Shown: positions 22,921 to 61,959, numbered from the stretch's first letter. The stretch is 64,000 nt of DNA from an uncultured Gammaproteobacteria bacterium (GCA_964445355.1 CAYUKQ010000004.1:1028-65027); one strand, 5' to 3'. The notes: generated by a model from the letters alone, not told the origin. A program made the numbers and translations.

Positions 22921-23220
22921 TTATTTGTTTATTTTTGCCATTAAATCTTCGAACTTGAGTAATGAATACTCTACACCGTCAATTTTTATTTCATTTCCAG
23001 CCCATTTTTTATAAAGCACCATGTCTTTTACATTGACTGGGGATTTTTTTTCTTGCCCATCTTCAAATACAGAATCACCAACTGCCAAGACTTCTCCTTC
23101 TGATGGTTTTTCTGTGTTAGCGGTGTCGGGCAAAATAATACCAGATGTGGTTTTGGTTTGAGATTCTTTTGGTTTGATAAGAATGTAACCGGCAAGCGGT
23201 TTAATTTTTGTTATTTCCAT
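22921..23220 (-). CDS. groS: co-chaperonin GroES
   Basis: 99-aa conserved GroES sequence directly upstream of groL. Confidence 0.95.
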
Positions 23221-23235
23221 AATGTTTTTGAGATT

Positions 23236-39390: not shown

Positions 39391-40213
39391 TGTTGTTTTT
39401 TTCTAAGAAGGGTAGCCAGTCTACCAAAGATCCCCACCCAGATACAAGATACTGCTGAATAATACCAACAACAGAGAAAGTGTTCCAATAAAGAGATAGG
39501 CCGATGGGAAGAGTATAGGAGAAGTAACCAATTAGTAGTGGAAGGATAAAAATCATCTGGCTTTGGGTTTGAGCTAATGTGTCAGCAAAATCCTCTTTGC
39601 TGTTCTTATCTTTTTTGACAGCTTTTTTATCGGTTTTTGCTAATGCCATTTTCGACTGTAACATTTGAAATAAGGCGGTCAATACTGGGACAAGAAGCAA
39701 TAGCACTCCAGCGGTTTGCCACTCGGACGGCTTGGTGTTGAGATGGATATTAAAAAATGAAGTGTCAAGCGGTGAAGTTAGGTGAAGGAATTTAAAATAT
39801 AGAACTTGGTTAAGCTTGTTAATAATTTCTCCGCTACCATCAGAGGACACCAACTGATTAAGTACTTGATACAGAGCGAAGAATATTGGGATTTGAACCA
39901 ACAAGGTAAGGCACCCGGTTGCCGGATTAACTCCATGAGCTTTGTAAAGTTCGGACTGTTTTTGAGCGTGCAGAGTTTTGTCTTTGCCGTGTTTTTTCTT
40001 GAGATCATCGAGGTGCGGTTTGAGCTCGGCCATTTTTTTGGTTTGGTGAAGTTGTTTGCCGGTGAGCGGCCAAACCAGCATGCGAATAAGTAATGTTAGG
40101 GCAAGAATAGCAAAGGCAAGAGGGTAAGGAAAATTCGCAGCCTCAAACAATTTGTAAAAGAAAACCGCGATATTTAGGATCGGATGTATGAGGATTTGGT
40201 TAATAATGTCCAT
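39377..40213 (-). CDS. yidC: membrane protein insertase YidC/Oxa1 family (short Gram-positive type)
   Basis: Conserved YidC core helices and the synteny rnpA-yidD-yidC-jag. Confidence 0.85.
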   Translation of the reverse strand: MDIINQILIHPILNIAVFFYKLFEAANFPYPLAFAILALTLLIRMLVWPLTGKQLHQTKKMAELKPHLDDLKKKHGKDKTLHAQKQSELYKAHGVNPATGCLTLLVQIPIFFALYQVLNQLVSSDGSGEIINKLNQVLYFKFLHLTSPLDTSFFNIHLNTKPSEWQTAGVLLLLVPVLTALFQMLQSKMALAKTDKKAVKKDKNSKEDFADTLAQTQSQMIFILPLLIGYFSYTLPIGLSLYWNTFSVVGIIQQYLVSGWGSLVDWLPFLEKNNNDKK

Positions 40214-40524
40214 TATTTATTTGGCTTTAATAATTTGTATGGCGAATATGATAACTGATGTTTGTTTTTTTTGCTTATTTTGATTGCAGGATCATAACCA
40301 CCAGCAGAGAAGGGGTTACAAGATAACACACGTTTAGTGATCGCCGGAATAGATCGCAGACCGTTAATTTCTAACGATTCGATCGCATAATCTGAACAGG
40401 TAGGAGTGTATCGGCAAACACGATGTGTAAAAAAAATTTTAAAGAAAGAGTGATCGGGCGAAATACTAAGCTGATAGATACGAATGATTGATATTAGTAT
40501 TTTTTTTGAATACTTTGAGCGCAT
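40213..40524 (-). CDS. yidD: membrane protein insertion efficiency factor YidD
   Basis: Conserved Cys motifs (CRYTPTCSDYA...CNPF..GGYDP). Confidence 0.85.
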   Translation of the reverse strand: MRSKYSKKILISIIRIYQLSISPDHSFFKIFFTHRVCRYTPTCSDYAIESLEINGLRSIPAITKRVLSCNPFSAGGYDPAIKISKKNKHQLSYSPYKLLKPNK

Positions 40525-40530
40525 GGGTGT

Positions 40531-40839
40531 TTAAAAATTTAGAAGTATTTTAGAAATCTCTGGTTTGATATCGTTTTGACTAAACTTGGAAAGGTTTGAC
40601 TTTACTAAGATCGCAATTTCTTTTGGGGAACTAATCGTTTGATTCAGCTCCATAAAACATGAAGCGACCAGCCTTCTCGTCCGGTTACGGTCAACAGCGA
40701 GCGGACATGTTTTTTTGGAGATAGTAATGATTATTTTTGTTTTGTCTGCAGGACGATAATTAACAATGAAATTTGCAGTGGAGAGTGAGTGGGGGTAATT
40801 ACGGGAAAATTTCTTTATGCTCAAAGAGCGAGGGATCAT
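40531..40839 (-). CDS. rnpA: ribonuclease P protein component
   Basis: RnpA-like basic sequence with the RNR motif (AVDRNRTRR). Confidence 0.8.
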   Translation of the reverse strand: MIPRSLSIKKFSRNYPHSLSTANFIVNYRPADKTKIIITISKKTCPLAVDRNRTRRLVASCFMELNQTISSPKEIAILVKSNLSKFSQNDIKPEISKILLNF

Positions 40840-40997
40840 TATTTGTGATTAATAACCTTAACAGTTAATGATTTGCGTCCTTTTCTGCGACGTGCCGAAA
40901 GAACCGCACGACCCGCGCGTGTAAGAGAACGCTTAAGAAATCCGTGCTTTCTGGCTCGTTTCTTCTTTTTTGGTTGATATGTTCTTTTGGTTGCCAT
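40839..40997 (-). CDS. rpmH: 50S ribosomal protein L34 (not in the supplied ORF track because it is under 60 aa)
   Basis: Hand translation of the minus strand gives [52 protein letters not shown]. Its stop overlaps the rnpA start by 1 nt. Confidence 0.85.
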
Positions 40998-41057
40998 AGT
41001 TTTGCGTGGGGAATTATATGCGCTAAATACTACCTAATGCAAGCACAAAAAAATGGT

Positions 41058-41156
41058 TTTCCACATGCAACCAAATGCTTGACGATGTGTGGATAAATGC
41101 AATATATTCATATGGCGTTTAAGTGGAAATCAAAACTGTTTGCCCAGTTATTCACG
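41058..41156. promoter_or_regulatory. DnaA-box cluster upstream of dnaA (origin/autoregulatory region)
   Basis: TGTGGATAA at 41088-41096 is a perfect reverse box. TTTTCCACA at 41058-41066 and TTATTCACG at 41148-41156 are near-consensus. Confidence 0.6.
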
Positions 41157-41209
41157 AAAACAAAACACCTCCAAACAAACTATTGGTTGTAGACAAAAAG
41201 ATTAAATCA

Positions 41210-42586
41210 ATGGAGATTGATTCAAAAAAACTTTGGAGCGATGTATTAAAGGATATTAGATCAGAGTTGTCGCCGGCAAACTTCCGGACGTGGTTTAGTG
41301 CAACAAAACTTGAAGTGGTCGATTCTGGGGATGACAAATTCGATTTTAAGGTTTTGGTTTTAAATAATTTTGTTCGCGAGCAAATACAAGCCAGATATTC
41401 CGATCAGATAAAAGACAGAATAGCGAGCAGGTTGAATGATGATGCTTTTAGTTTAACTGTAGAGGTGGGAAGTGATATTAAGGTAAACAAAGGTGAAGAA
41501 AAAAAGGTATCTGAGGAGGTATTTATTCATGAGAATGTAATACAAGAGATAAAGGTCGGTTGGGGTACGGTTAATAATCTGAATCCGAATTTCACGTTTG
41601 AAAAGTTTGTGGTCGGTAACTCGAACAATCTGGCGTTTGCGGCCGCTCAGGCCGTTTCGCAGAGCCCAGGAAGTGTCTATAACCCATTCTTTATTTATGG
41701 CGGAGTTGGGGTTGGGAAAACACACTTAATGCAAGCGGTGGCGAATAGAATATTAGAGAGTAATCCCGGAGTGAGGGTTATTTATACAACTTGCGAAAAA
41801 TTTACAAACGAATTCATTGAATCTATTTCGTCTAAAAACGCGAAAAGTTTTAGGGAAAAGTTCAGACGCAACGATGTCTTAATGATCGACGATATACAAT
41901 TCTTGAGCGGTAAAGAGTCAACCCAAGAGGAATTTTTTCACACCTTTAACGAATTATACGGTGGAGGAAAACAGATCATCCTTACTTCCGACAGACACCC
42001 GTCTTCACTTGGAAAAATTGAGGATAGATTAGTATCAAGGTTTTTGGGTGGTCTAACAGTAGATATTGGTAACCCCGATTTTGAAATGAGGGTAGCGATC
42101 ATTAATCAAAAAATAAAAGCTAAAAGCCTAAATTTGTCTCCTGAAATTGTGGATATCATCGCCTCAAAAGTGGATAAAAACACCAGAGAGCTCGAAGGAG
42201 TGTTGACAGGTATCATTTCCCTGGCTTCACTCAAAGGTCAGGATATAGATGTGGATATCGTTAAAAAATTCTTTGGAATCCAAAACGAAACAAGGAGAAC
42301 GAAGCCGATTACCCCAAGAAGAGTAATATCGGTCGTGGGTAGTAAAACCAAAATTTCTACAGGTGATATTTTAGGTAAGAACAGGCAGAAGGATCTAGTT
42401 ATGGCCAGGCAGATAGTAATGTATTTACTCAGGGAGGAATTTAAGTTTTCTCTGGTATCAATAGGTGAGTCGCTTGGAGGAAGGGACCATACAACAATCA
42501 TGCATGGAGTAGAGAAGATAAAATCAGATATTAAGTCGGATGTTAATTTAAGAGAATTGGTTTTAGATATAAATAACACCTTATGA
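41210..42586 (+). CDS. dnaA: chromosomal replication initiator DnaA
   Basis: Canonical N-terminus (MEIDSKKLWSDVLKDIRSEL), Walker A (GGVGVGKTHL) and a C-terminal DNA-binding domain. The ORF-track start at 41123 is a GTG that adds 29 aa and covers a DnaA-box-like site, so the ATG at 41210 is preferred. Confidence 0.9.
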   Translation: MEIDSKKLWSDVLKDIRSELSPANFRTWFSATKLEVVDSGDDKFDFKVLVLNNFVREQIQARYSDQIKDRIASRLNDDAFSLTVEVGSDIKVNKGEEKKVSEEVFIHENVIQEIKVGWGTVNNLNPNFTFEKFVVGNSNNLAFAAAQAVSQSPGSVYNPFFIYGGVGVGKTHLMQAVANRILESNPGVRVIYTTCEKFTNEFIESISSKNAKSFREKFRRNDVLMIDDIQFLSGKESTQEEFFHTFNELYGGGKQIILTSDRHPSSLGKIEDRLVSRFLGGLTVDIGNPDFEMRVAIINQKIKAKSLNLSPEIVDIIASKVDKNTRELEGVLTGIISLASLKGQDIDVDIVKKFFGIQNETRRTKPITPRRVISVVGSKTKISTGDILGKNRQKDLVMARQIVMYLLREEFKFSLVSIGESLGGRDHTTIMHGVEKIKSDIKSDVNLRELVLDINNTL

Positions 42587-42831: not shown

Positions 42832-43962
42832 ATGACACAAACAAAGATAGGTTTTTCAGTTAAACAGGAAAATTTCGTTCAAGCTCTACAATTAGTTCTG
42901 AGGGTTGTTACTTCAAAAATAACCTTACCGATACTTAATAATTTTTTGATCGAAGTTGAGTCAGGGAAAATTATTGTGTCATCAACGAATCTTGATGTAG
43001 CAATATCAGTTACAGTTACTGCAACAAATACCCAAATTGGGAAAATTGCCGTACCAGGGAAGATATTAAATGATCTTGTTTCAACACTTAACCCAGGTGA
43101 TCTTGAACTCGAGGTGGTTGACGGAATCGGATCTTTAGTTTCGGGAAAATTTGCCGCAAAAATTAATACCGCCCCCGTTGATGATTATCCAGTGATCCCT
43201 TCAGAATCAGGTGAAGCTAGGGTGGAAATTCCATCAAAATTATTATCTTCGACGATAAACCGGGTTGAGTTTGCGGCTGCGCTTGATGAATCCAGACCGA
43301 TTTTGGCAGGGGTATTGTTTGATTTGTCGGAAAAAGGGATTGAATTGGTAGCGACGGACGGATACAGATTATCTCACGCAAAATTCGAAGGTGATTTTGA
43401 AAGCAGTCCGATTAGAGTTGTTATTCCAGCAAGAACGCTTCAGGAGGTATCAAAGATCTCTGTGTTGGGTGATATGGTTGGTGTTTGGTTGTCGGAGAAT
43501 GATAAACAGGTGGTTTTTAAGGTTGGTAATGTAAAAGTTGTTTCTAGGATAATCGAGGGTGAATATCCGAACTGGAGAAAGATCGTTCCTGAGTCATTTA
43601 CTACAAAGATGTTGGTTGATAGAGATGATTTTGCAAAAGCACTTACTCAAGCTGCGGTTTTTGCTAAGGAATCGGGTAATGTTGTGAAAATAAGTCTTGG
43701 TGAAGGATTAGGTATGGTGGTCTCTTCTGTTTCGAGAGAGTTGGGAGAAGAGAAAAACGAGATCGAGGGAGAGATGACTGGTCCGGCAGGTGAAATAGCA
43801 TTTAATTGGCGGTATTTGAATGATTTTTTGAGTGTTTGTTCATCGGAAAAGTTTAATCTGGAGATGTTGGAAAGTTTGAAGCCTGGAAAATTTACTTTTG
43901 ATAAAGACGAATCTGGTATTGAATTTATGCATATCATTATGCCTGTTAGACTACAGGAGTAA
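42832..43962 (+). CDS. dnaN: DNA polymerase III beta sliding clamp
   Basis: 376 aa with a conserved N-terminus (FSVKQENFVQALQLV) and three-domain length. Confidence 0.9.
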   Translation: MTQTKIGFSVKQENFVQALQLVLRVVTSKITLPILNNFLIEVESGKIIVSSTNLDVAISVTVTATNTQIGKIAVPGKILNDLVSTLNPGDLELEVVDGIGSLVSGKFAAKINTAPVDDYPVIPSESGEARVEIPSKLLSSTINRVEFAAALDESRPILAGVLFDLSEKGIELVATDGYRLSHAKFEGDFESSPIRVVIPARTLQEVSKISVLGDMVGVWLSENDKQVVFKVGNVKVVSRIIEGEYPNWRKIVPESFTTKMLVDRDDFAKALTQAAVFAKESGNVVKISLGEGLGMVVSSVSRELGEEKNEIEGEMTGPAGEIAFNWRYLNDFLSVCSSEKFNLEMLESLKPGKFTFDKDESGIEFMHIIMPVRLQE

Positions 43963-45320: not shown

Positions 45321-48300
45321 TTAGTTTACTGCAGCGCAACTGCCTGAACACCCCCGGACATCGACAGGAATGTATGGCGGCTCCATTCGGAGGCCTCGAA
45401 ATTCATAGTGAAGATGTGTGCCTCTAACATCAGGAGGAAGTATATATCCCGTGAATCCCTCATAACCAACTATTTGACCTTTAGTTATTACGGCTCCGAC
45501 TTCGATGCCTGGGCCAAACGAATCCATATGACCATAGATTGCTCTGAAGGATGTGCCGTTGCAGGTACCGCTTAGGATGACTGTTAAGCCGGTTCGGCCG
45601 GTGATCGGATGGTTACCAGCCGGATCTGTGTATTTATACTCAACAACTCCATTAAACGTGGCCAGTAAGCTATCGGTGTAGAAAGTAGCAACATCTATGG
45701 CTTCGAGAGATGAGTGTGAAACCAACCCTCCCGGTCCTTGTGTGACATTGCCTGATCCAGCCGCGGGCCAGCCCGACGGACAGTCTCCGGCGGGTGTGCC
45801 AATAAAGACTGATGAAAGGTCGTTTGCAGAGGAAGAAACCGAGTTGGTAAATCCTCCTCCAGGTGCCGGGATGGGGATTATGTTGGGGTCAAATGATTTA
45901 AAACTGATTGAAAATTTATTACTAATACTTGAGTCCTGAAAAATTGTCTCGTTCGGAATTGGAAGATCGTATGAAATACTGGCTGTTTGATTTGGATTGA
46001 GAGTGGTTGGACAGTTGATGGTTGGGCTGGTTAGGTTGCGAATATTTCCGGATTTAGTTACGTGGGTGATTGTATCAGTGCAGACAATATCGTAGATGGG
46101 TTGGTTTTGGGCACTAATATTGACAGTGTAGGTGACGGTTTGGGGAAGATCCGAATTTTCTAGTTTGATGGTTTTAGCGGGTCCGAGAGATTTAGCGTTA
46201 ACGCTGGCAAGCTTTTGAATTTGTATGTAAGTGTTTGATGTTTCACCTTCTGTAGCGTCACCAGGTAAAACGATTTGTTCCGGAAGGCTTGGGTTGGTAA
46301 ATAAAGCAGAAGAGACTGTGCTGTAGCTTAATATGGAAAATGTGGTAATACTCCCAACTGTGGCGGTCGGGATCAGGACAGCAGGGTTGGTTGCTACACC
46401 TACAAGTGCGTTAGTGCCACTGCTAACAAGTCCACCAATTGCTGATGCACCAGGAATTCCGCTAATAAAACCACCGACGGCCCCCGCAGCAGACCAGGTA
46501 AACGATGCAGCTGCTGCACCCGCCGACCAAATCGCTGAGGCTGCACCAGTGGCCCACCCTGAAACTGCCCCCCAAATCTTGGGAAGGTAAAACATAAGAT
46601 TATTAACAACTGTGGCGTAACCGGGGAAGTGGTTATAAAGCCAGACAGATGCTGTTCCACCAAGGAAACCGCCGATTAATGCACCTACTGGCCCACCGAG
46701 CGCGAACCCGATCGCTGCACCAACAGCGAATCCAACCGCAAAAGCGACGATGTTGGCAAGTATCCAAAGAAGGAACATGTAAGCGAGGAAAGCGAGGGTT
46801 GCGAGAATATAGGCGATCTGTTTTTTGTATTTTGCTGCCAGCATTAACCCGGCCTGCACAAGCAGCGAAATACCTCCGGTGCCAGCGCCGACGGCTGCAG
46901 AAATACCCAGTTTTGCTCCAACTTTTAGTGCGCCTTTTTTAGCAAATCCTTTGAGTTTGCCTTTGGCCCGACCGGCTGAAAATTTTTGTGAGAAGGAGAA
47001 AAATGATTTTTTTGGTATAAAATTGGCCGATCGAGTGATGGTTTGTCCGGCGGGGCTTTGAGAATAGTATGAACGGGAAAAATTACCCATTCTCCATACA
47101 GAATGTTTTTTGGGGGCATTAAACTCTGGAATCTGTTCATATAATTCCAGTTCGTCAGAGTAGTTTTTTAGGAGAATGGATTGACCAACGCTTATAGATT
47201 CCTGCTCATTTATTTCCCGAATCGATCTGGACAAAAAGGATCTTCTCTCTGGATTAGGGTTAAGACTTGCGGACAAAAACTCTTCATAACTTTGCTGTTG
47301 TCTTTTAGGATTATCCATGAGCGAGGCAAATGCGTGATTTTCGGCGGCGGTGATTTCTGAAGATTCAGCCTGATATTGTCCTTGAGAGTAAATATTGACA
47401 GGCTGAAGAATTTCGTGACTGACGACATCGGTAACGAAGCGGGGGGCTGCTAAGGTAAGAAGTGTTTTGTCGTCAAGTTTTGAGTCGAGGTGTTTGAGGT
47501 AATTCTGGTAGCTGTTTTCTTCTGCGGAGCGAAGATTCTGAAGGAGACTTTGTGGGTTAAGAGGGATGTTCTTATCAAAATCTTCCTGTGTGTTTTGAAT
47601 GATTTGATTGGCAATGTTGGGTAGGTATATTTGGTGAATTGCTTCAGAGATAATTTGTTTGTTTTTTGCTGTAGCTGTTTCCGGGTTGATTTTTAATCCA
47701 GTGTCGATTGCTTTGTCGATGATTTGTGAGTGTGTTGATGGAGATGATTGGGGATCGGCTAGTGTGGAGATTAGGAGAATTTGTGATGCGGTATTGGCTT
47801 GGGTTACCGCTGGATGATTGGTTTCAGATACTTGGTCGACTGCGACTAAAAAGTCATCAGACTTGGTCAATTTTTTGGCGCCGTCTGTGGTCTCGGGTTC
47901 TTTGAGCGAATGTTCGTAGATTTCCGACGCCAAAACGGGCGACAATTCCTGGTAGTCGGCTGTGTGAGTGGAATAAATGATCTGGGTCGCGACATTGTTG
48001 GCGATTTTTCCAGCGATACGTTGTTGGTTGGCTGCGTCGATTTTGGCCTTGAACAGCGTGGCTGAGATGGCTGGTGATTGGATAAGTTGAGTGATGGCGT
48101 TGGTGAGTTCGGTGTGTGTGAGTGTGACTGTATCCTCGAGTTTTTTAGTTGTGGATCTGGTCGAACTTGATGAAGGTTTTGGATTAGCTGGCTCACCAGA
48201 TTGTTTTGAGGGTGATTTGGAGCTATTGTTGGGCAGGGTAATAATTCGAGTGGTCGTTTGGGGTAAGGTAATGGGTTGCTGGATCGGTAGGGGGGCGGTT

Positions 48301-48836
48301 GGGTTTACTGATTGAGGTGTTTGGGTCGTGGGGATTGGATTAGTAATCTTAATTGTTTTTGGTAGTTCGATAGGGGTGGGAGGGGTTTGGTTATTTTGTC
48401 GAATTTGTTTAATAGCGTTGTCGACTTCTTCAATAACCCCAGCGCTGCTAAGTGTGCGTGTTTGGGTTGGAGAATCCGGGTTTTGGAGTTTGTGAATAAT
48501 AGGAATGACAGATTGGTTGGTTAGTTCAAACTCTTTTAGATTGGCTTGAATTAGGGTGGTAAAGATTTGTTTAAGGACAAGGATGTTTTGGCCGATGTTT
48601 ATAATTTCGTATTTGTCGGCAATATTCTGGATAGTGATTAGCGTTTGTTCATAGCTTGCGTCTGGGAATAAATCTTTGAATTGTTCGTTAAACTCTTTCT
48701 CGCTTGGGAAGCGGGGTGGTTGACCGTCTTTGGGTGATTTTTCAAAAAAATCTAAAACCCAATCAGCTAAACGAAATTGGAGTAATTGGTCAATGGCGGT
48801 TTTGGGTTTGGATGGTTCAACCTGACTTGTTGACAT
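45321..48836 (-). CDS. giant polytopic membrane protein with a C-terminal M23/LytM peptidase domain (PrgK-like T4SS-associated cell-wall hydrolase candidate)
   Basis: 1171 aa with a P/T/Q-rich N-terminus and a central Gly/Ala-rich multi-TM region. The C-terminus has HxxxD...HLHYE (GYEGFTGY...GTHLHYEF). Confidence 0.6.
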   Translation of the reverse strand: MSTSQVEPSKPKTAIDQLLQFRLADWVLDFFEKSPKDGQPPRFPSEKEFNEQFKDLFPDASYEQTLITIQNIADKYEIINIGQNILVLKQIFTTLIQANLKEFELTNQSVIPIIHKLQNPDSPTQTRTLSSAGVIEEVDNAIKQIRQNNQTPPTPIELPKTIKITNPIPTTQTPQSVNPTAPLPIQQPITLPQTTTRIITLPNNSSKSPSKQSGEPANPKPSSSSTRSTTKKLEDTVTLTHTELTNAITQLIQSPAISATLFKAKIDAANQQRIAGKIANNVATQIIYSTHTADYQELSPVLASEIYEHSLKEPETTDGAKKLTKSDDFLVAVDQVSETNHPAVTQANTASQILLISTLADPQSSPSTHSQIIDKAIDTGLKINPETATAKNKQIISEAIHQIYLPNIANQIIQNTQEDFDKNIPLNPQSLLQNLRSAEENSYQNYLKHLDSKLDDKTLLTLAAPRFVTDVVSHEILQPVNIYSQGQYQAESSEITAAENHAFASLMDNPKRQQQSYEEFLSASLNPNPERRSFLSRSIREINEQESISVGQSILLKNYSDELELYEQIPEFNAPKKHSVWRMGNFSRSYYSQSPAGQTITRSANFIPKKSFFSFSQKFSAGRAKGKLKGFAKKGALKVGAKLGISAAVGAGTGGISLLVQAGLMLAAKYKKQIAYILATLAFLAYMFLLWILANIVAFAVGFAVGAAIGFALGGPVGALIGGFLGGTASVWLYNHFPGYATVVNNLMFYLPKIWGAVSGWATGAASAIWSAGAAAASFTWSAAGAVGGFISGIPGASAIGGLVSSGTNALVGVATNPAVLIPTATVGSITTFSILSYSTVSSALFTNPSLPEQIVLPGDATEGETSNTYIQIQKLASVNAKSLGPAKTIKLENSDLPQTVTYTVNISAQNQPIYDIVCTDTITHVTKSGNIRNLTSPTINCPTTLNPNQTASISYDLPIPNETIFQDSSISNKFSISFKSFDPNIIPIPAPGGGFTNSVSSSANDLSSVFIGTPAGDCPSGWPAAGSGNVTQGPGGLVSHSSLEAIDVATFYTDSLLATFNGVVEYKYTDPAGNHPITGRTGLTVILSGTCNGTSFRAIYGHMDSFGPGIEVGAVITKGQIVGYEGFTGYILPPDVRGTHLHYEFRGLRMEPPYIPVDVRGCSGSCAAVN

Positions 48837-48896: not shown

Positions 48897-50759
48897 TTAC
48901 TGAATTATTTCCTGTGTGGCAGAAATTGGTTGCGAGTTGGTCTGATCTGTATCGGTTTGTGTAGTGCCGTCTATTTGGTTGGCAAGAATATCCTTAGGAT
49001 TGGACGTGACAAGCTTGTCTTCGTTTGGTGAGGCAATAACGCGCATTGCCACGTGTGAGCTACCGGCGAAAAACAATCCTTCACCAACGTCGGCACCGAG
49101 CAATAGGTGTTTTTCCCCATCAGTTAGGTAAAAGACTTCTGCAAGCTTGTCGATTGCCGCCGCAGACTGTTTGAGTAGTATTTGAATACTTGAGTTGGTA
49201 ACAATCGCCTTTCCGTATTCAGTACTGAGGAAGTCTTCGACATCCTGAGTAATGGTTGTTAATCCAAGGTAGTATTTGCGTGCACGCTTGGCGATCGAAT
49301 ACATAAAACTCGCGGAATCCGGATATTGCATCATGTACCAAGCCTCGTCGACGATGAGAATGCGTCGTTTTAGGTCTCTTTTTACTCTGGTCCAGATAAA
49401 ATCAAGAATAATGTACATGGCGATTGGGCGAAGTTCGGCTTCGAGGTTTTTGATCCCAAATACAGTAAAAGTATTACGTAGGTCCATATTAGAATATTGG
49501 TCAAAAATTCCAACCAAAGATCCTTTGACAAATTTTTCAATTCTTTCTGCAAGTGTTTTGGCTTGTGGTTCTTCCATGCCGATTAATACTTTGTATAAGT
49601 CTTCCATTAGCGGAGGTTGAAGTGTTTGTGTTTGAGGACTGTCAGCAACGATACCTTTGTTTTTGTAGGTTTGGACAAGTGCCCGATCCAGGATTGCGTC
49701 TTCGGTGGCGGATAGCTGTCCCATAATGACGCGGAATAAGCCGTGCAGTGAGAGGATTTTGAGTCCTAGTTCGTTTTCTTCTTCGTACGTTCCTGAGAGG
49801 TCGAAGGGGTTGATCTTGGTGTCGGACTTGAAATCGAAACTGATATATTCTCCGCCGATGGCGTTGCAGAGATTTTTGTACTCTTCTTCAGGGTCAATAA
49901 TGATGATTTCTGTGCCGAACATTAAATATCTTAAAGCTTCGAGTTTGGTCATGTAGGATTTTCCACCTCCGGATTTGGCAAAAACGACGGTGTTAGCGTT
50001 TTCTAGACTGAAACGATCAAAGATGATGAGTGAACCGTTGTGTTCATTAAGTCCATACATGATCCCCTCGTTGCTGGTTAAAGAGCTTGAAGTGAAAGGA
50101 AAGGTTGTTGCCAGTGAGGTGGTATCCATGTTGCGAGTAACAAGTAGTTTGTCGTGACCGTAAGGCAGGGTTGTTTTGAAGCCATCTTCCTGTTGTAGTG
50201 TGGCGTGTTTGGAGATAACTAAAATAGAACCTAACAGACTCTCAACCTGTTTAGTAATATTTACCAATTCCTCTTTGGTTTCTGCAGGGATGGTGATGTA
50301 GAGTCCAAATTGGAAGAATTTTTCTGCACCTTTGGCGATATTCTGCTGGAAGGTTCGAGCGTCATCAAGTGTAACCTCAAGGTTTGGGTCAATGATCTTG
50401 CCGCGCTGGACGTCCGTGGAGATCGTGGCTTCCATTTCGCCGATTTTGCGCTTCATGTCCTGAAGAACGGCTTGTGCGTCAACCGGATAGTGAAACATTG
50501 ATATTTCGAGTGTGTGGTTGAAATTGATTAATGGAGAGAGCCAGTTGGCGCCGACATAGCGCGGATAGCCAATTATAAAGAGTGTTTTGAAGTATGTTTC
50601 ACCAATTTTGATGAAGTCAAAGTCGACTTCAATGGCTGGTGGTGCAATGATATCGCGAACAGAAACCGTACCTTGCGCGACAGCTTTGGCTTGTGCTGAG
50701 ACTAATTCGGGAGCATTTTGAGGTGATTGGTTGGGATTTTTTTTGCCGAATAGTTTCAT
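48897..50759 (-). CDS. VirB4/TrsE/PrgJ-family type IV secretion ATPase
   Basis: KIGETYFKTLFIIGYPRYV...WLSPLINFNHTLEISMF is VirB4 N-region-like. Walker A (FAKSGGGKSY) and Walker B (ILIVDEAW) are present. Confidence 0.8.
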   Translation of the reverse strand: MKLFGKKNPNQSPQNAPELVSAQAKAVAQGTVSVRDIIAPPAIEVDFDFIKIGETYFKTLFIIGYPRYVGANWLSPLINFNHTLEISMFHYPVDAQAVLQDMKRKIGEMEATISTDVQRGKIIDPNLEVTLDDARTFQQNIAKGAEKFFQFGLYITIPAETKEELVNITKQVESLLGSILVISKHATLQQEDGFKTTLPYGHDKLLVTRNMDTTSLATTFPFTSSSLTSNEGIMYGLNEHNGSLIIFDRFSLENANTVVFAKSGGGKSYMTKLEALRYLMFGTEIIIIDPEEEYKNLCNAIGGEYISFDFKSDTKINPFDLSGTYEEENELGLKILSLHGLFRVIMGQLSATEDAILDRALVQTYKNKGIVADSPQTQTLQPPLMEDLYKVLIGMEEPQAKTLAERIEKFVKGSLVGIFDQYSNMDLRNTFTVFGIKNLEAELRPIAMYIILDFIWTRVKRDLKRRILIVDEAWYMMQYPDSASFMYSIAKRARKYYLGLTTITQDVEDFLSTEYGKAIVTNSSIQILLKQSAAAIDKLAEVFYLTDGEKHLLLGADVGEGLFFAGSSHVAMRVIASPNEDKLVTSNPKDILANQIDGTTQTDTDQTNSQPISATQEIIQ

Positions 50760-56335: not shown

Positions 56336-58045
56336 TTATCTTCGATTTTCGTATGGGTTAGCGGTACGGTTGTTTTGCTGGGCGGCTCTTTGTGGGGTCG
56401 TGGTTGGTCCGGCTGGCCCCGGCCTACCTGGAGTGATCGGACTTGAAGCTCCTTCCTGACGGGACAGTCGGTCATATCTGCGCTGAGCACTCCATGGGTT
56501 GAAGGTATTGTTGAGTTTTTCCTGTCCAAAATCATTTACTCTGGTTTTGGCGCGACTAGCAGCACCATTGAAAGGTTGTCTGGCCATTCCCCATCCTGCG
56601 CCAGCGACGGCGCCAGCAGCACCGCCAATTGTTCCGCCAAGTCCACCGCCTTTGACTTTGAAGGCGTCTTGAGCGATCTTGGCTGCTGAAGGGATACCTA
56701 AGAGGATGCCAATACCAATAAGCGACTTAAGTGCGTTAGCGCCGTCTTCGTCAGTGAAGCCGCCCAGAAGTGGGGCATTCCAACCGTCGCCTTCAGTAAT
56801 TGTGGCTTCACCGGAGGTAATGCGGTCTTTGCCAACACCCATAAAATATGCAGCAAAAATAATCATCAGAATTGTAATAACAAAGGTAGCAAGTTGAGCG
56901 GCGATGTTGCGGATCCATGGACCAAAACCCGGCATGTTTGGCAGTACGCCGATACCGATCATGAGTGGACCAAAGATGGTGTAGAAAAAGACTTTTACGT
57001 AAGCGATCAGAAGCATGAAGAAGATACGGAAGGTTGCAACCAGCATCATAATGCCGATGACGGCGACGGCGAGCGCAGAAAGAATTTTGGAACTGAATTT
57101 TTCGATCAAGTCTGGCAAGCCGAATTGATCGATCGCTCCGCTGATAATGTCATCATTACTATTAAATATCCCGGAAATGTTTTTCAAAAAGAGATCTTTG
57201 AGCATAAAAGTAAAGACATTTCCTTCGTAATAAATATGATTAGAGTCGGCTTTGGCTACATTTTCGCTAGAGAGGATTTGGATCATGATGGCGATAAAAA
57301 AATTCATAAGATCGATCATTAGACCGACGATGGCATAGCTGAAGGTAATTAGAATTAAGCTAATAATGATTTTCGGAAGGACGGCTTGGATCGAAGCAAC
57401 GGAATTTGAGTTAAGGCGTTGTCTAAAAATGATCATGAAACCAATAATGATGAAAAAGATGACGTATAGAAGTAGGGTAAGGTTGCGAAAAGTGGTCCAA
57501 AGCGCTTGAGTTGGTTTCAGTCCGTCGTAGCCGCTTTGGGCGGCTAAAGTTTCTCCGGTGATTTTGGATTTGATATCCGCAATATATTGAACCCCAGAGG
57601 CTGGTTCTTCGGTATAAAGCAGAGAAATACTTTTCATTAAAAACGGTATTGCGGCGGCAGGTTGACAGTCGGTGGCGCCTGAGTTGATACATTCAAGTTC
57701 TTCATCGGTAGCCGGCAAGCCAGTGATTTGGCGGTTAATGCCGTAAGCGAGGTTATCCATTAGTCCGAGATTGAATTTTTGAAGGTTTACATCCTCTTCA
57801 TCAAGGGCATTTTTGTACTGACAGATAGATTGTTGGTAGGGCTGGACGGTTTTACCTACGCCCTGTTGGGGGTTTGAGATCGCGGAGCTGTCTGGACCGG
57901 CTGGAGCTGCGGATCCGGAGTCGGTTTCACATTCAAAAGGATCTTCTACTTGGGCTTGGGCGTTTTTGAGGCTGAAAAAGACGGTAAAAAGGGTGAATAT
58001 TGCAATGGTGGACAGGACAAGCTTAAGTCGCATTAGTTTAGGCAA
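56336..58045 (-). CDS. VirB6/TrbL-like polytopic type IV secretion channel protein
   Basis: Signal peptide, about 6 TM helices and a C-terminal Gly/Pro-rich tail, next to VirB4-like genes. Confidence 0.55.
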   Translation of the reverse strand: MPKLMRLKLVLSTIAIFTLFTVFFSLKNAQAQVEDPFECETDSGSAAPAGPDSSAISNPQQGVGKTVQPYQQSICQYKNALDEEDVNLQKFNLGLMDNLAYGINRQITGLPATDEELECINSGATDCQPAAAIPFLMKSISLLYTEEPASGVQYIADIKSKITGETLAAQSGYDGLKPTQALWTTFRNLTLLLYVIFFIIIGFMIIFRQRLNSNSVASIQAVLPKIIISLILITFSYAIVGLMIDLMNFFIAIMIQILSSENVAKADSNHIYYEGNVFTFMLKDLFLKNISGIFNSNDDIISGAIDQFGLPDLIEKFSSKILSALAVAVIGIMMLVATFRIFFMLLIAYVKVFFYTIFGPLMIGIGVLPNMPGFGPWIRNIAAQLATFVITILMIIFAAYFMGVGKDRITSGEATITEGDGWNAPLLGGFTDEDGANALKSLIGIGILLGIPSAAKIAQDAFKVKGGGLGGTIGGAAGAVAGAGWGMARQPFNGAASRAKTRVNDFGQEKLNNTFNPWSAQRRYDRLSRQEGASSPITPGRPGPAGPTTTPQRAAQQNNRTANPYENRR

Positions 58046-59292: not shown

Positions 59293-59706
59293 TTAGATGT
59301 TGCATAGGGTACCTGCCGGAGTGTAGTTGAGCAGGTTGATGCCTGTTACTAATTCAAGCGATTTGAAGATGGCATATACAAGCAAGAGGACCACGACTCC
59401 GATGAGTGCGGTTGTGATTGCGCCGCGAGCTTGGCCGGCGCCACCTGGATTACCGAAGGAGAAAATATATTTGTACCCAGCGTAAATGAGCATCAGGAAA
59501 AAAGCGATCCCTGCGGCCGGGGCAATGATCTTGATCGTTTTGGCGACGATCCCGAGCAAATCACAAAGCTGCGATGGGGTTTCGCTATCGCTACCGCCTC
59601 CTCCGGGTGGACCGCCACCTCCGGTACTGGCGGCGAAGGCTGTTTGACTAACTAAAAGCAGTAAGAGGACATAAACAATTGTGATTGAGAGCGCTCGATA
59701 TTTCAT
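59293..59706 (-). CDS. pilin-like small membrane protein, paralog 1 (signal peptide plus two-TM hairpin)
   Basis: Signal peptide, a Gly-rich segment and two TM helices separated by the loop FSFGNPGGAGQARGAI. Confidence 0.5.
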   Translation of the reverse strand: MKYRALSITIVYVLLLLLVSQTAFAASTGGGGPPGGGGSDSETPSQLCDLLGIVAKTIKIIAPAAGIAFFLMLIYAGYKYIFSFGNPGGAGQARGAITTALIGVVVLLLVYAIFKSLELVTGINLLNYTPAGTLCNI

Positions 59707-59821
59707 AAAAACTAACTCTTATTAAGAATGATACCAATAACTAATGACTTAAATCCAAAACAATACCGGTCGGGAACGAAATCCGTCCAGACCGATATGT
59801 TTTTTGGGAGTAAAACAATTA

Positions 59822-60202
59822 CTAATTTCCAAGAGTAGGAATAGTAAAGTTGTCTCCAGTAATAATGCTGACTCCGAGAATAGCTTGGACAAGCATAATT
59901 AAGGCTAAGGCCAAAACTACAACCACCAAACCTACGAGTGCGTGGATTACTTGCTGTCTGGCGGCGTTGACTTTTCCTGGATCACCACTTGAGAGGATCC
60001 ACTTGATACCACCAATGAGTAACCAAATAAAAGCAATAAGGAATGCGGCAAAAATAATAGCTTTAATGACGAAACTTAGGATCGCGCCAGGTTCGGCGAC
60101 GTTAACGCTGTATGGGTTGAGGTTGATTTCGTCTGCTAAGACGTTGCTTGTCGCGGCAATTGTGCCAGCGACTGACGAGGCTGCGGCAATTAACTTTTTT
60201 AT
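59822..60202 (-). pseudogene. pilin-like paralog 2 with ATA at the expected start codon (non-canonical start or point-mutated pseudogene)
   Basis: Hand translation gives (I)KKLIAAASSVAGTIAATSNVLADE...LIGGIKWILSSGDPGKVNAARQQVIHALVGLVVVVLALALI...GN*. It has the conserved loop motif and a signal-peptide-like N-terminus but no ATG, GTG or TTG. The SD (AAAGGGGGTGA) sits 9 nt upstream of ATA. It is absent from the ORF track for this reason. Confidence 0.4.
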
Positions 60203-60226
60203 AACGACTCACCCCCTTTCAAGGTT

Positions 60227-60676
60227 TTAAAACGGAAGCGTTGGGTTTGTAATTGATCCCGCGTCGAGAGTGAAGACCTTTTCGACCAGGGTCAGGATCG
60301 AGAATGCGAGAATGATAACTACCAGTCCGACGATTGCGTAAACGATCTTTTTTTGAGCGGCGGCGGTTTTGTTTGGCTCGCCGTTACTGGTAATGTAGTT
60401 GATTCCGCCGATTAACAGCCAGATAAAAGCCATAAGGAATCCGGCAAAAATCAGAATCTTAATGAAAAAAGTAATTAGCGTCCCGACTTGGGATGCCTCT
60501 GTGGGAATACCGGCAGGCGGACAAATCTCACCGAGCGGGTTGTCGCTCGATCCTTGTGATCCGGTCGTGCATGCAGCGATCACGTTGACACTCGAAATAA
60601 TTAACATTGCGATTAAGCCTGGGAAGATAATAGCTAAGTGTTTGAGATTGTGTTGTAGTGATCTGAGCTGTTTCAT
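60227..60676 (-). CDS. pilin-like small membrane protein, paralog 3
   Basis: Loop motif LIGGINYITSNGEPNKTAAAQKKIVYAIVGLVVII. Confidence 0.5.
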   Translation of the reverse strand: MKQLRSLQHNLKHLAIIFPGLIAMLIISSVNVIAACTTGSQGSSDNPLGEICPPAGIPTEASQVGTLITFFIKILIFAGFLMAFIWLLIGGINYITSNGEPNKTAAAQKKIVYAIVGLVVIILAFSILTLVEKVFTLDAGSITNPTLPF

Positions 60677-60677
60677 T

Positions 60678-61100
60678 TTAAAGGTTGGGGTTATTGATAA
60701 ATAGTGCCTGTACTGTATACATTATCACAAAGGTCAGGATCATCACGACCATACCAACCACAGCAAAAGTAATGTTTTTGCGTGCGTCAGCGGCTTTGTT
60801 TGGGTCACCACCTGAGGTGATGAATTTGATACCGCCGATCACAATATAGACTAGGGTAAAAATCGCACCGAGACTAAAAATAATACCCAGAGCGACCGTG
60901 CCAATATCACCAACTGATTGAAAAGTTTCGGCTGGCTGGAATTCTTCGTTGATGTCCAGCCCCATAAGGCTAAGCGCTGAAGTGGGGATAATGGCGGTGG
61001 TCAAGATTTTTTTAAGTAACATAAACGTTAAGCACTGATTGGGAAATAAATGCTGTGATTGCCCAAGCAATGCAGATAATAATAAGACCGATAACTGCAT
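60678..61100 (-). CDS. pilin-like small membrane protein, paralog 4 (true start probably the internal Met, MLLKK...)
   Basis: Loop motif VIGGIKFITSGGDPNKAADARKNITFAVVGMVVMIL. The annotated start overlaps paralog 5. Confidence 0.5.
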   Translation of the reverse strand: MQLSVLLLSALLGQSQHLFPNQCLTFMLLKKILTTAIIPTSALSLMGLDINEEFQPAETFQSVGDIGTVALGIIFSLGAIFTLVYIVIGGIKFITSGGDPNKAADARKNITFAVVGMVVMILTFVIMYTVQALFINNPNL

Positions 61101-61344
61101 TGATAATCATGGATTTTCCTCCAGAAACACTGTTGGGGTTGCCGCCGCTAATAATGATGCGAAAAGCACCGATCGCAATCAGAATAATTGACACCAGAAA
61201 GGCAAATGGGAATAAAAAATAGACCATCGCGTTACTGATAAAACCGCCAATTGAGTTAACAGCCCCGGTTTCGTCAGAAGTAATAGGGTTGCCTACTCCA
61301 GAGTTGCCGAGTTGGATGGCGATGTGTTTGAGTTCGTTGATCAT
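61012..61344 (-). CDS. pilin-like small membrane protein, paralog 5 (no obvious signal peptide)
   Basis: Loop motif AIGAFRIIISGGNPNSVSGGKSMIINAVIGLIIICIA. Confidence 0.45.
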   Translation of the reverse strand: MINELKHIAIQLGNSGVGNPITSDETGAVNSIGGFISNAMVYFLFPFAFLVSIILIAIGAFRIIISGGNPNSVSGGKSMIINAVIGLIIICIAWAITAFISQSVLNVYVT

Positions 61345-61350
61345 AGACAG

Positions 61351-61959
61351 TTATGGGGTTGGGTCATAAATATCTGACTGACTTTCGATACCGGGCAGAT
61401 TAAGGATGTTGGCACCGATTATTTCGAGGATAGATACAGCGAAGACAATAAACAATAGTCCTGAGATGGCAGAGATGATCATTTCACGGCCCTGGTTGAT
61501 TTTGGTAGGGTTGCCTGCAGAGGCGACGATTTGGACTGCACCAAAGCCAGCGAGAATAAAAGCAATAACTGCGGCGATCGAGATTGAGACTAGGAGAATT
61601 GTGGTAACGGTTTGCCCGCCACTATCACTAACGTCGAACTCTAAGATTCCTCCAATAGAACAGGTTGGTTTGCAGGGAATCGAGGAGTCTCCGCCAGACC
61701 CACCGCCAGTGGTTTCTCCGCTTCCTACACCTGCACCGCCAGCAAGGGCAGTTTCGCATGAAGCTTGTGAGCTGTAGTGAGGAAGATCACCTCCGAACGA
61801 GGCAGAAATACATTGAACTGTGCCGCCGACGTTACGAATAAACCAATAGGTGGCTGCATTGACCTCATTTGGTTTTTGATTAAGAGAGGAAAACAATAAA
61901 TTAGCAAGGACAAATATTGCCAGGATGAATGTTTTTCTGAACAGTTTAGTTTTGGGCAT
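61351..61959 (-). CDS. pilin-like membrane protein, paralog 6, with an extra Cys-containing extracellular domain
   Basis: Signal peptide, a 100-aa Cys/Gly-rich domain, then the conserved hairpin GFGAVQIVASAGNPTKINQGREMIISAISGLLFIVFA. Confidence 0.5.
   Translation of the reverse strand: MPKTKLFRKTFILAIFVLANLLFSSLNQKPNEVNAATYWFIRNVGGTVQCISASFGGDLPHYSSQASCETALAGGAGVGSGETTGGGSGGDSSIPCKPTCSIGGILEFDVSDSGGQTVTTILLVSISIAAVIAFILAGFGAVQIVASAGNPTKINQGREMIISAISGLLFIVFAVSILEIIGANILNLPGIESQSDIYDPTP

Follow-up and report, generated by a model that had tools for sequence, protein, structure and literature searches.

We propose that the fifth gene of a tandem pilin array encodes a functional VirB2-like pilin, which would be translated from the near-cognate codon AUA (AUU in some relatives) behind an extended Shine-Dalgarno (SD) sequence. 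From the sequence comparisons described below, the probability of this reading is put at roughly 0.8. The gene lies in a stretch of DNA of 64,000 nucleotides from an ultra-small, uncultured bacterium, which was analysed as a whole and is hereafter called the window. By pairing a conserved AUH start with an extended SD, it appears to be of a kind already known from infC, pcnB, ccpN, and cvfC1. The gene and its initiation region have the following features:

59822-60202, minus strand: VirB2-like pilin coding sequence, 126 codons from ATA plus the TAG stop (59824-59822), defined by translation and the PF18895 match
60202-60200, minus strand: candidate initiation codon ATA (ATT in loci L008 and L017-L019)
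60200-60195, minus strand: A6 run, whose first A is the last base of ATA and which extends over Lys codons 2-3 (AAA AAG)
60203-60208, minus strand: spacer GTCGTT between the SD and the start codon (GTTGTT in L002 and L007)
60220-60209, minus strand: extended SD GAAAGGGGGTGA, 12 nt, the last three bases of which are the in-frame TGA
60221-60226, minus strand: AACCTT between the upstream stop and the SD, invariant and part of a 24-nt non-coding block
60134-60202, minus strand: predicted Sec signal peptide (M)KKLIAAASSVAGTIAATSNVLA, cleaved before DE, as read from the sequence
59897-60067, minus strand: T4SS_pilin (PF18895) domain, two hydrophobic helices on either side of the GGIKWILSSGDPGK loop

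The order of elements on the minus strand is TAA (60229-60227), AACCTT, GAAAGGGGGTGA, GTCGTT, and ATA, followed by AAA AAG TTA ATT GCC. The initial annotation had described a full-length pilin paralog with a signal-peptide-like N-terminus and with ATA at the expected start position, adjoining a run of six A residues, and all of these elements were found in place. The translation of 126 residues opens with IKKLIAAASSVAGTIAATSNVLA, continues after the predicted cleavage site with DEINLNPY and further on with GGIKWILSSGDPGKV, and contains LLIGGIKWILSSGDPGKV internally; an example of a mature-pilin peptide is DEINLNPYSVNVAEPGAILSFVIK. The PF18895 T4SS_pilin profile is matched with 30.9 bits (cut-off 26.6), by residues 46-102 against profile positions 13-68 of 71. 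As read by eye from the translation and the alignment, the product is small and has a signal peptide at its N-terminus, followed by two hydrophobic helices that flank a short loop, as is usual in this family, and the GG(I/L)(K/R)W...GD loop is invariant when the target is aligned with seven orthologs. The AFA/VLA cleavage motifs also align in the orthologs, which backs the predicted signal peptide. The initiating residue would be lost with the signal peptide, which is predicted to be cut off after VLA, so N-terminal proteomics on the mature pilin would probably be uninformative about the start.

Every other gene-sized ORF in the window has a canonical start at the 5' end; the target is the sole exception. 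A TGA (60211-60209) inside the SD stands in frame two codons 5' of ATA and closes the frame there, so an in-frame start further upstream is impossible. It had been claimed that the frame holds no ATG, GTG, or TTG at all. This is correct for the first 91 codons, but the first canonical start in frame is a TTG at residue 92 (59929-59927), and a GTG and a later ATG follow. Since canonical starts occur only from residue 92 on, none of them could yield a functional pilin.

The strong SD noted 9 nt upstream of ATA proved to be the strongest anti-SD complement on both strands of the 64-kb window, with -20.6 kcal/mol when a Bacillus-type 16S 3' end is assumed. The pairing comprises 12 contiguous pairs, one of them G-U, with the assumed 16S tail 3'-UCUUUCCUCCACUAG-5'. 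ATA is placed 9 nt past the GGGGG core and 6 nt past the end of GGTGA. With the same assumed anti-SD, the other 52 genes have a median duplex of -1.65 kcal/mol in the 25 nt upstream, compared with -3.8 kcal/mol at random positions. The genome is thus SD-poor: upstream of its genes, pairing with the anti-SD is even weaker than in random sequence. In nine haplotypes, the block AACCTT-GAAAGGGGGTGA-GTYGTT is invariant at 22 of 24 positions, compared with 14 of the 54 four-fold synonymous sites in conserved codons (naive binomial P ~2e-11). Judged by these haplotypes, the initiation region is more constrained than synonymous sites and apparently under strong selection. The SD variants of the clade and the outgroups (GAAAGGGGGTGA, GAAGGGGGGTGA, GAGAGGAGGTGA, GAGAGGGGGTGA, and GGAAGGAGGTGA) differ from each other only by exchanges of A and G. 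These exchanges occur only at positions facing U, so pairing with the assumed anti-SD would be preserved. In L020 and L022-L024, for instance, GAAGGGGGGTGA replaces GAAAGGGGGTGA by an A-to-G change at SD position 4, where a G-U wobble would keep the pairing.

Comparison of orthologous loci, which had been proposed as a check, covered 22 loci, i.e., the window and 21 more from independent assemblies. L001-L004 came from a protein-guided scan of species-representative genomes, L005 from the same scan in metagenomes (which yielded this one ortholog and one distant paralog, L006), and L007, L008, and L017-L030 from exact-match queries with mis-called fragments of the protein and with the upstream neighbour. 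At the start position, 18 of the 22 loci have ATA and the remaining four ATT, and none has ATG, GTG, or TTG. All 22 carry the in-frame TGA two codons upstream, and in none does a canonical start occur from this stop to the conserved N-terminal region. The ORF of 124-127 codons is intact in all 21 loci that span it, L030 being cut five codons in. L002 and L007 have a run of seven A residues (A7), and the ATT loci one of five (A5); these differences come from base substitutions that never break the frame, and no frame-breaking length variant was found among the 22 loci, near-identical strains included. Pairwise comparison of eight sequences gave dN/dS of 0.04-0.13 at dS of 0.7-2.2 between at least four deep lineages, from which the pilin gene is judged to be under purifying selection. 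The Lys-Lys n-region is invariant across orthologs and outgroups, and its codons vary only synonymously (AAG to AAA). Of the three explanations offered initially, noncanonical initiation is therefore the one that comparison of the 22 loci supports, now widened to AUA or AUU by the four ATT loci.

ATT is found both in L017-L019, which are identical to the window at 125 of 126 amino acids, and in the distant L008, so the third base must have changed at least two times independently. The ATA/ATT pattern alone would also fit an internal Ile codon undergoing synonymous change. That reading is excluded only because the TGA two codons upstream is conserved and no upstream frame is. Selection against ATG specifically is what we infer; with about five lineages and AT-rich third positions, the absence of G and C at the third base is not statistically decisive.

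More distant relatives bear on the origin of this start. A profile search returned hundreds of proteins of 124-140 aa with 38-55% identity in Microgenomatia (e.g., Curtissbacteria and Gottesmanbacteria), and all of those sampled begin M-x(2-5)-KKLI. The same search found no orthologs at 55-85% identity, so the timing of the switch from ATG to ATH is not bracketed. Of the six paralogs in the window, it is the target that forms a reciprocal best match with the outgroup protein P0005. Five outgroup orthologs (L009, L016, L010, L031, and L032) have ATG behind the same extreme SD, and the two that were scored gave SD energies of -21.0 kcal/mol (L031) and -17.8 kcal/mol (L032). Both in the window and in the outgroups with enough flank (L010, L031, and L032), the ortholog stands out as the only strongly SD-led gene among its neighbours. 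Because these five outgroups combine ATG with the same SD, the extended SD would be an old hallmark of one pilin and the ATH start derived in the window's clade. This clade appears to have diverged deeply since the change from ATG to ATH without reverting. The metagenome-assembled genomes of L001-L004 (CAZKYX01, CAYGIG01, CAYOLO01, and CAYROP01) are titled 'uncultured Gammaproteobacteria bacterium'. These labels look wrong because all named homologs are from Microgenomatia and the locus has an organisation typical for Patescibacteria.

The genomic surroundings of the gene comprise the following features:

59293-61959, minus strand: array of six tandem PF18895 pilin paralogs, of which the target is the fifth
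60227-60676, minus strand: upstream paralog, 149 aa, PF18895, with a TAA stop (60229-60227) 24 nt before ATA
56336-58045: hydrophobic protein, 569 aa
51768-53768: PrgI/VirB3-like protein (PF12666)
48897-50759: TraG/VirB4-like ATPase (PF19044 TraG P-loop)
45321-48836: M23 peptidase protein
42832-43962: dnaN
41123-42586: dnaA
within 40213-41123, minus strand: rpmH-like gene
40531-40848, minus strand: rnpA-like ORF
40213-40530, minus strand: yidD-like ORF
22921-23235, minus strand: groES-like ORF

The array is thus genomically linked to T4SS core genes, the association examined for the PF18895 family, and it is part of a T4SS cluster of the Patescibacteria type that lies close to the replication origin, with a putative role in pilus formation or secretion. 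The 569-aa hydrophobic protein gave no Pfam match. The 910-nt gap upstream of dnaA (40213-41123, minus strand) in the map of ORFs of at least 110 aa is occupied by small genes whose start codons are canonical. In the 64-kb window, Rfam and tRNA scans found nothing. Within the array, the first four paralogs are separated by gaps of 1-6 nt or overlap by 11 nt and are without SDs (61012-61022, 61344-61351, and 60676-60680, minus strand), and this tight packing suggests translational coupling. By contrast, a 24-nt spacer with an SD precedes the target and a 115-nt spacer with a hairpin follows it. At its 3' end, the upstream paralog has codons CUU CCG UUU (60221-60245, minus strand) that are complementary to the SD (GAAAGGGGG).

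As far as the arrays are described in the part of the literature considered here, the window resembles the T4SS pilin arrays of Patescibacteria (PF18895/PF04956) in having tandem divergent PF18895 genes, six in this case, and it also shares with them an adjoining VirB4/TraG-like ATPase, PrgI/VirB3-like and VirB6-like proteins, and dnaA, dnaN, rnpA, and rpmH close by (PMC12102498). According to the same account, VirB2 arrays comprise 2-11 genes and are enriched in Microgenomatia, their abundance being highest in Microgenomatia and Saccharimonadia, and a comparable pilin array was essential in one Patescibacteria study summarised there (PMC12102498). The passages of that paper considered here, which catalogue the arrays, make no mention of start codons or ribosome-binding sites. 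Relative to those passages, one uniquely SD-led member and a noncanonical start in one clade appear to be additions to the array catalogue.

Downstream of the target, two further elements were located:

59763-59798, minus strand: conserved stem-loop AUAUCGGUC...GACCGGUAU, directly after the target stop
59762-59755, minus strand: U-rich tail UGUUUUGG, following the stem-loop

The stem-loop folds better than shuffled sequence (z = -3.23). Compensatory changes were observed at four of nine lower-stem pairs in seven loci (the window, L001, L003, L004, L007, L008, and L017), the lower stem occurring as CGGUC/GACCG, CGACC/GGUCG, CGGCC/GGCCG, and CAACC/GGUUG. A simple terminator scan missed this element because of its large loop. 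The stem-loop is probably a terminator or an mRNA stabiliser. Together, the unique SD and the conserved hairpin suggest that the target may be the principal and most heavily expressed pilin of the array.

Initiation is envisaged as follows. The 30S subunit would be anchored by the unusually long SD duplex of about 12 bp, GAAAGGGGGUGA, for which the expected partner is a 16S 3' end with CCUCC, ideally CACCUCCUUUC. With the subunit so anchored, AUA, at 9 nt past the GGGGG core, would come to lie in the P site and be decoded by initiator fMet-tRNA with a third-position mismatch. Both the favourable second codon AAA and the 9-nt spacing fit SD-anchored initiation. The product would start fMet-Lys-Lys-Leu-Ile, be exported, and have its signal peptide cut after VLA. 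If infC, pcnB, ccpN, and cvfC1 are a guide, the weak codon probably reduces pilin output and renders it dependent on the IF3 level and the physiological state. Initiation at AUA or AUU, fMet as the first residue, and an attenuating or regulatory effect are all inferred.

Two further traits of AUH-initiated genes are found in the target: a near-cognate codon at a working distance from a strong SD, as scored with the assumed anti-SD, and conservation of the noncanonical codon across species together with an ORF under purifying selection. In E. coli, infC and pcnB have AUU starts, which are subject to IF3-dependent discrimination and autoregulation. The target would resemble them in having a weak AUH codon that limits expression, and a response to IF3 is expected for it too. 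E. coli infC is autoregulatory since its product is IF3 itself, whereas for a pilin a comparable feedback is not apparent. Another parallel is provided by S. aureus and Bacillus. As in the target, their AUA/AUU genes have an AUH start conserved across species, a long SD at proper spacing, and purifying selection (PMC13009471). In S. aureus, infC, ccpN, and citZ (AUA) and cvfC1 (AUU) have extended SDs and reach 10-30% of AUG output, and the output of ccpN depends on the growth medium (PMC13009471). Some differences should be mentioned. About 90% of genes in S. aureus and Bacillus use SDs (PMC13009471), whereas the target genome is SD-poor and the target SD an outlier in it. Moreover, their AUH genes are regulators or translation factors and their starts were mapped experimentally, whereas the target encodes an exported structural pilin and its start is proposed from sequence comparison. 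In E. coli reporters, AUA and AUU gave only 1-2% of AUG (10.1101/063800), so pilin output could be very low. When the initiation region is optimised, AUA can match AUG in vitro, but it is uncompetitive under nutrient limitation or ppGpp (PMC5499595).

The best-surviving alternative, still an unlikely one, is termination-reinitiation, in which ribosomes arriving from the upstream pilin would be held by the SD and restart at AUA, so that output would mainly be a fixed fraction of the neighbour's expression. The intercistronic distance between the upstream gene and the target is short and conserved at 24-26 nt, and genes 1-4 of the array are closely coupled, either overlapping or standing 1-6 nt apart. 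Furthermore, a hairpin is predicted in which the last codons of the upstream gene (CUUCCGUU) pair with the SD, and this hairpin would be opened by an upstream ribosome. If this SD-sequestering hairpin is real, translation of the two pilins would be coupled. However, it shows no compensatory changes, its pairs being kept by one-sided changes only in the alifold hairpin, and it does not fold better than shuffled sequence (z = -0.45). In addition, the outgroup orthologs with the same SD lie 48-170 nt from the previous gene. Reinitiation would in any case still start at AUA or AUU. It is thus a variant of the main explanation and not an exclusive alternative to it, and a possible contributor.

Two readings that place the start elsewhere are both very improbable. 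In the first, translation would begin at a GTG inside the SD (60212-60210) with M-S-R-Y-K-K, and a +1 frameshift or a one-base transcriptional deletion in A6 would lead to MSRYKKLIAAA... The outgroup proteins begin in a similar way, with MTKFKKLI or MAKYKKLI in place of MSRYKKLI. In addition, A AAA AAG is a well-known slippery heptamer, and GGGGG stands upstream of it as an SD-like element, as at the frameshift sites of dnaX (A AAA AAG) and prfB (AGGGGG-N3-CUU UGA). Unlike dnaX and prfB, the target is without a conserved upstream frame, its heptamer is broken by the ATT variants, and the frame geometry is wrong. In the ATT loci (L008 and L017-L019), the run is A5 and a TAA appears in the GTG frame (GTG AGT CGT TAT TAA), so the slippery context is lost. 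The GTG also has no room for an SD of its own. Moreover, the heptamer in the pilin frame would shift ribosomes out of frame rather than in, the SD lies about 11 nt from the site, a distance that promotes -1 shifts, ribosomes shifting by -1 out of the GTG frame would meet TAA, and A6 is short for transcriptional slippage. Across the loci, no combination of a conserved upstream ORF and a conserved slippery sequence was found.

The second reading, held to be as doubtful as the first, puts the start at a near-cognate ATT/ATC at codon 5 (60190-60188) and makes ATA only leader. ATT and ATC are indeed near-cognate starts as well, and the hydrophobic core of the signal peptide would be retained. Against this, codon 5 is 21 nt from the SD core, far beyond the working range, and a start there would drop the invariant Lys-Lys n-region, whose codons change only synonymously, as expected if they are translated.

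Slightly less probable again is a pseudogene, recently inactivated or phase-variable through the ATG-to-ATA change or A-run slippage, which was the on/off explanation suggested at first. A canonical start is missing, the start position adjoins a homopolymer, and the gene is passed over or shortened by gene callers. This suggestion does not hold against dN/dS of 0.04-0.13 at dS up to ~2, an ORF intact in all complete loci, an initiation region that is non-coding and yet more constrained than synonymous sites, and 0 frame-breaking length variants in 22 loci. A base-call or assembly error turning ATG into ATA in the window, for which only prior plausibility beside a homopolymer can be cited, has a negligible chance, since assemblies of four other samples (L027-L030) independently gave the identical haplotype with ATA and A6, and a canonical start is also missing in the 17 further loci. 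The window haplotype occurs in samples ERZ15185866, ERR4682891, SRR32555632, and SRR35975713.

Several other candidates were rejected. Readthrough from the upstream gene would have to pass two intervening stops; furthermore, the A-run after the upstream paralog's stop varies from A4 to A6 between loci, so the frame relation of the two genes differs among them. Genetic codes with TGA as a sense codon (4 or 25) are contradicted by uninterrupted ORFs of up to 1171 aa under table 11 and by ATGA/GTGA stop-start overlaps. A 7-codon uORF overlapping ATA (TTG AAA GGG GGT GAG TCG TTA TAA) is not conserved in length and has no SD. A sigma-70 promoter TTGAAA...TATAAA would have a spacer of only 13 nt, and the promoter scan gave nothing above shuffled sequence.

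Translation from AUA or AUU also has consequences for annotation. In public calls, the gene is absent in L027-L029 and is cut to 80-112 aa from internal M/V starts in P0002-P0004. In P0001 (L017-L019), it is extended to 152 aa with the TGA read as Trp, and this W is a gene-caller artefact. Because of this failure of gene callers, surveys of Patescibacteria pilin arrays will undercount or mis-size this pilin; permitting ATA/ATT starts behind strong SDs would mend the annotation. As a comparative example, the gene would extend to the Candidate Phyla Radiation (CPR) the combination of a noncanonical start and an extended SD that was recently mapped in Staphylococcus. It is distinguished by its CPR host lineage, the SD-poor background, the exported T4SS pilin as product, and the systematic gene-caller failure.

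For the biology of the pilus, an extreme SD on one pilin per array, with a terminator-like hairpin in the window's clade, points to a likely principal subunit and offers a lead on subunit roles. We tentatively hypothesize, as a rather unlikely extension of translation from AUA or AUU, that selection keeps the weak AUH start on the single SD-led and probably major pilin as a translational gate. Pilin output would then track IF3, ppGpp, and ribosome availability, and assembly of the T4SS pilus would be tied to the host-derived nutritional state of the epibiont. Bacteroidota reserve SDs for a few special genes, e.g., rpsU. More broadly, these SD-poor genomes may likewise reserve the anti-SD for a few special genes, and this pilin would be among them.
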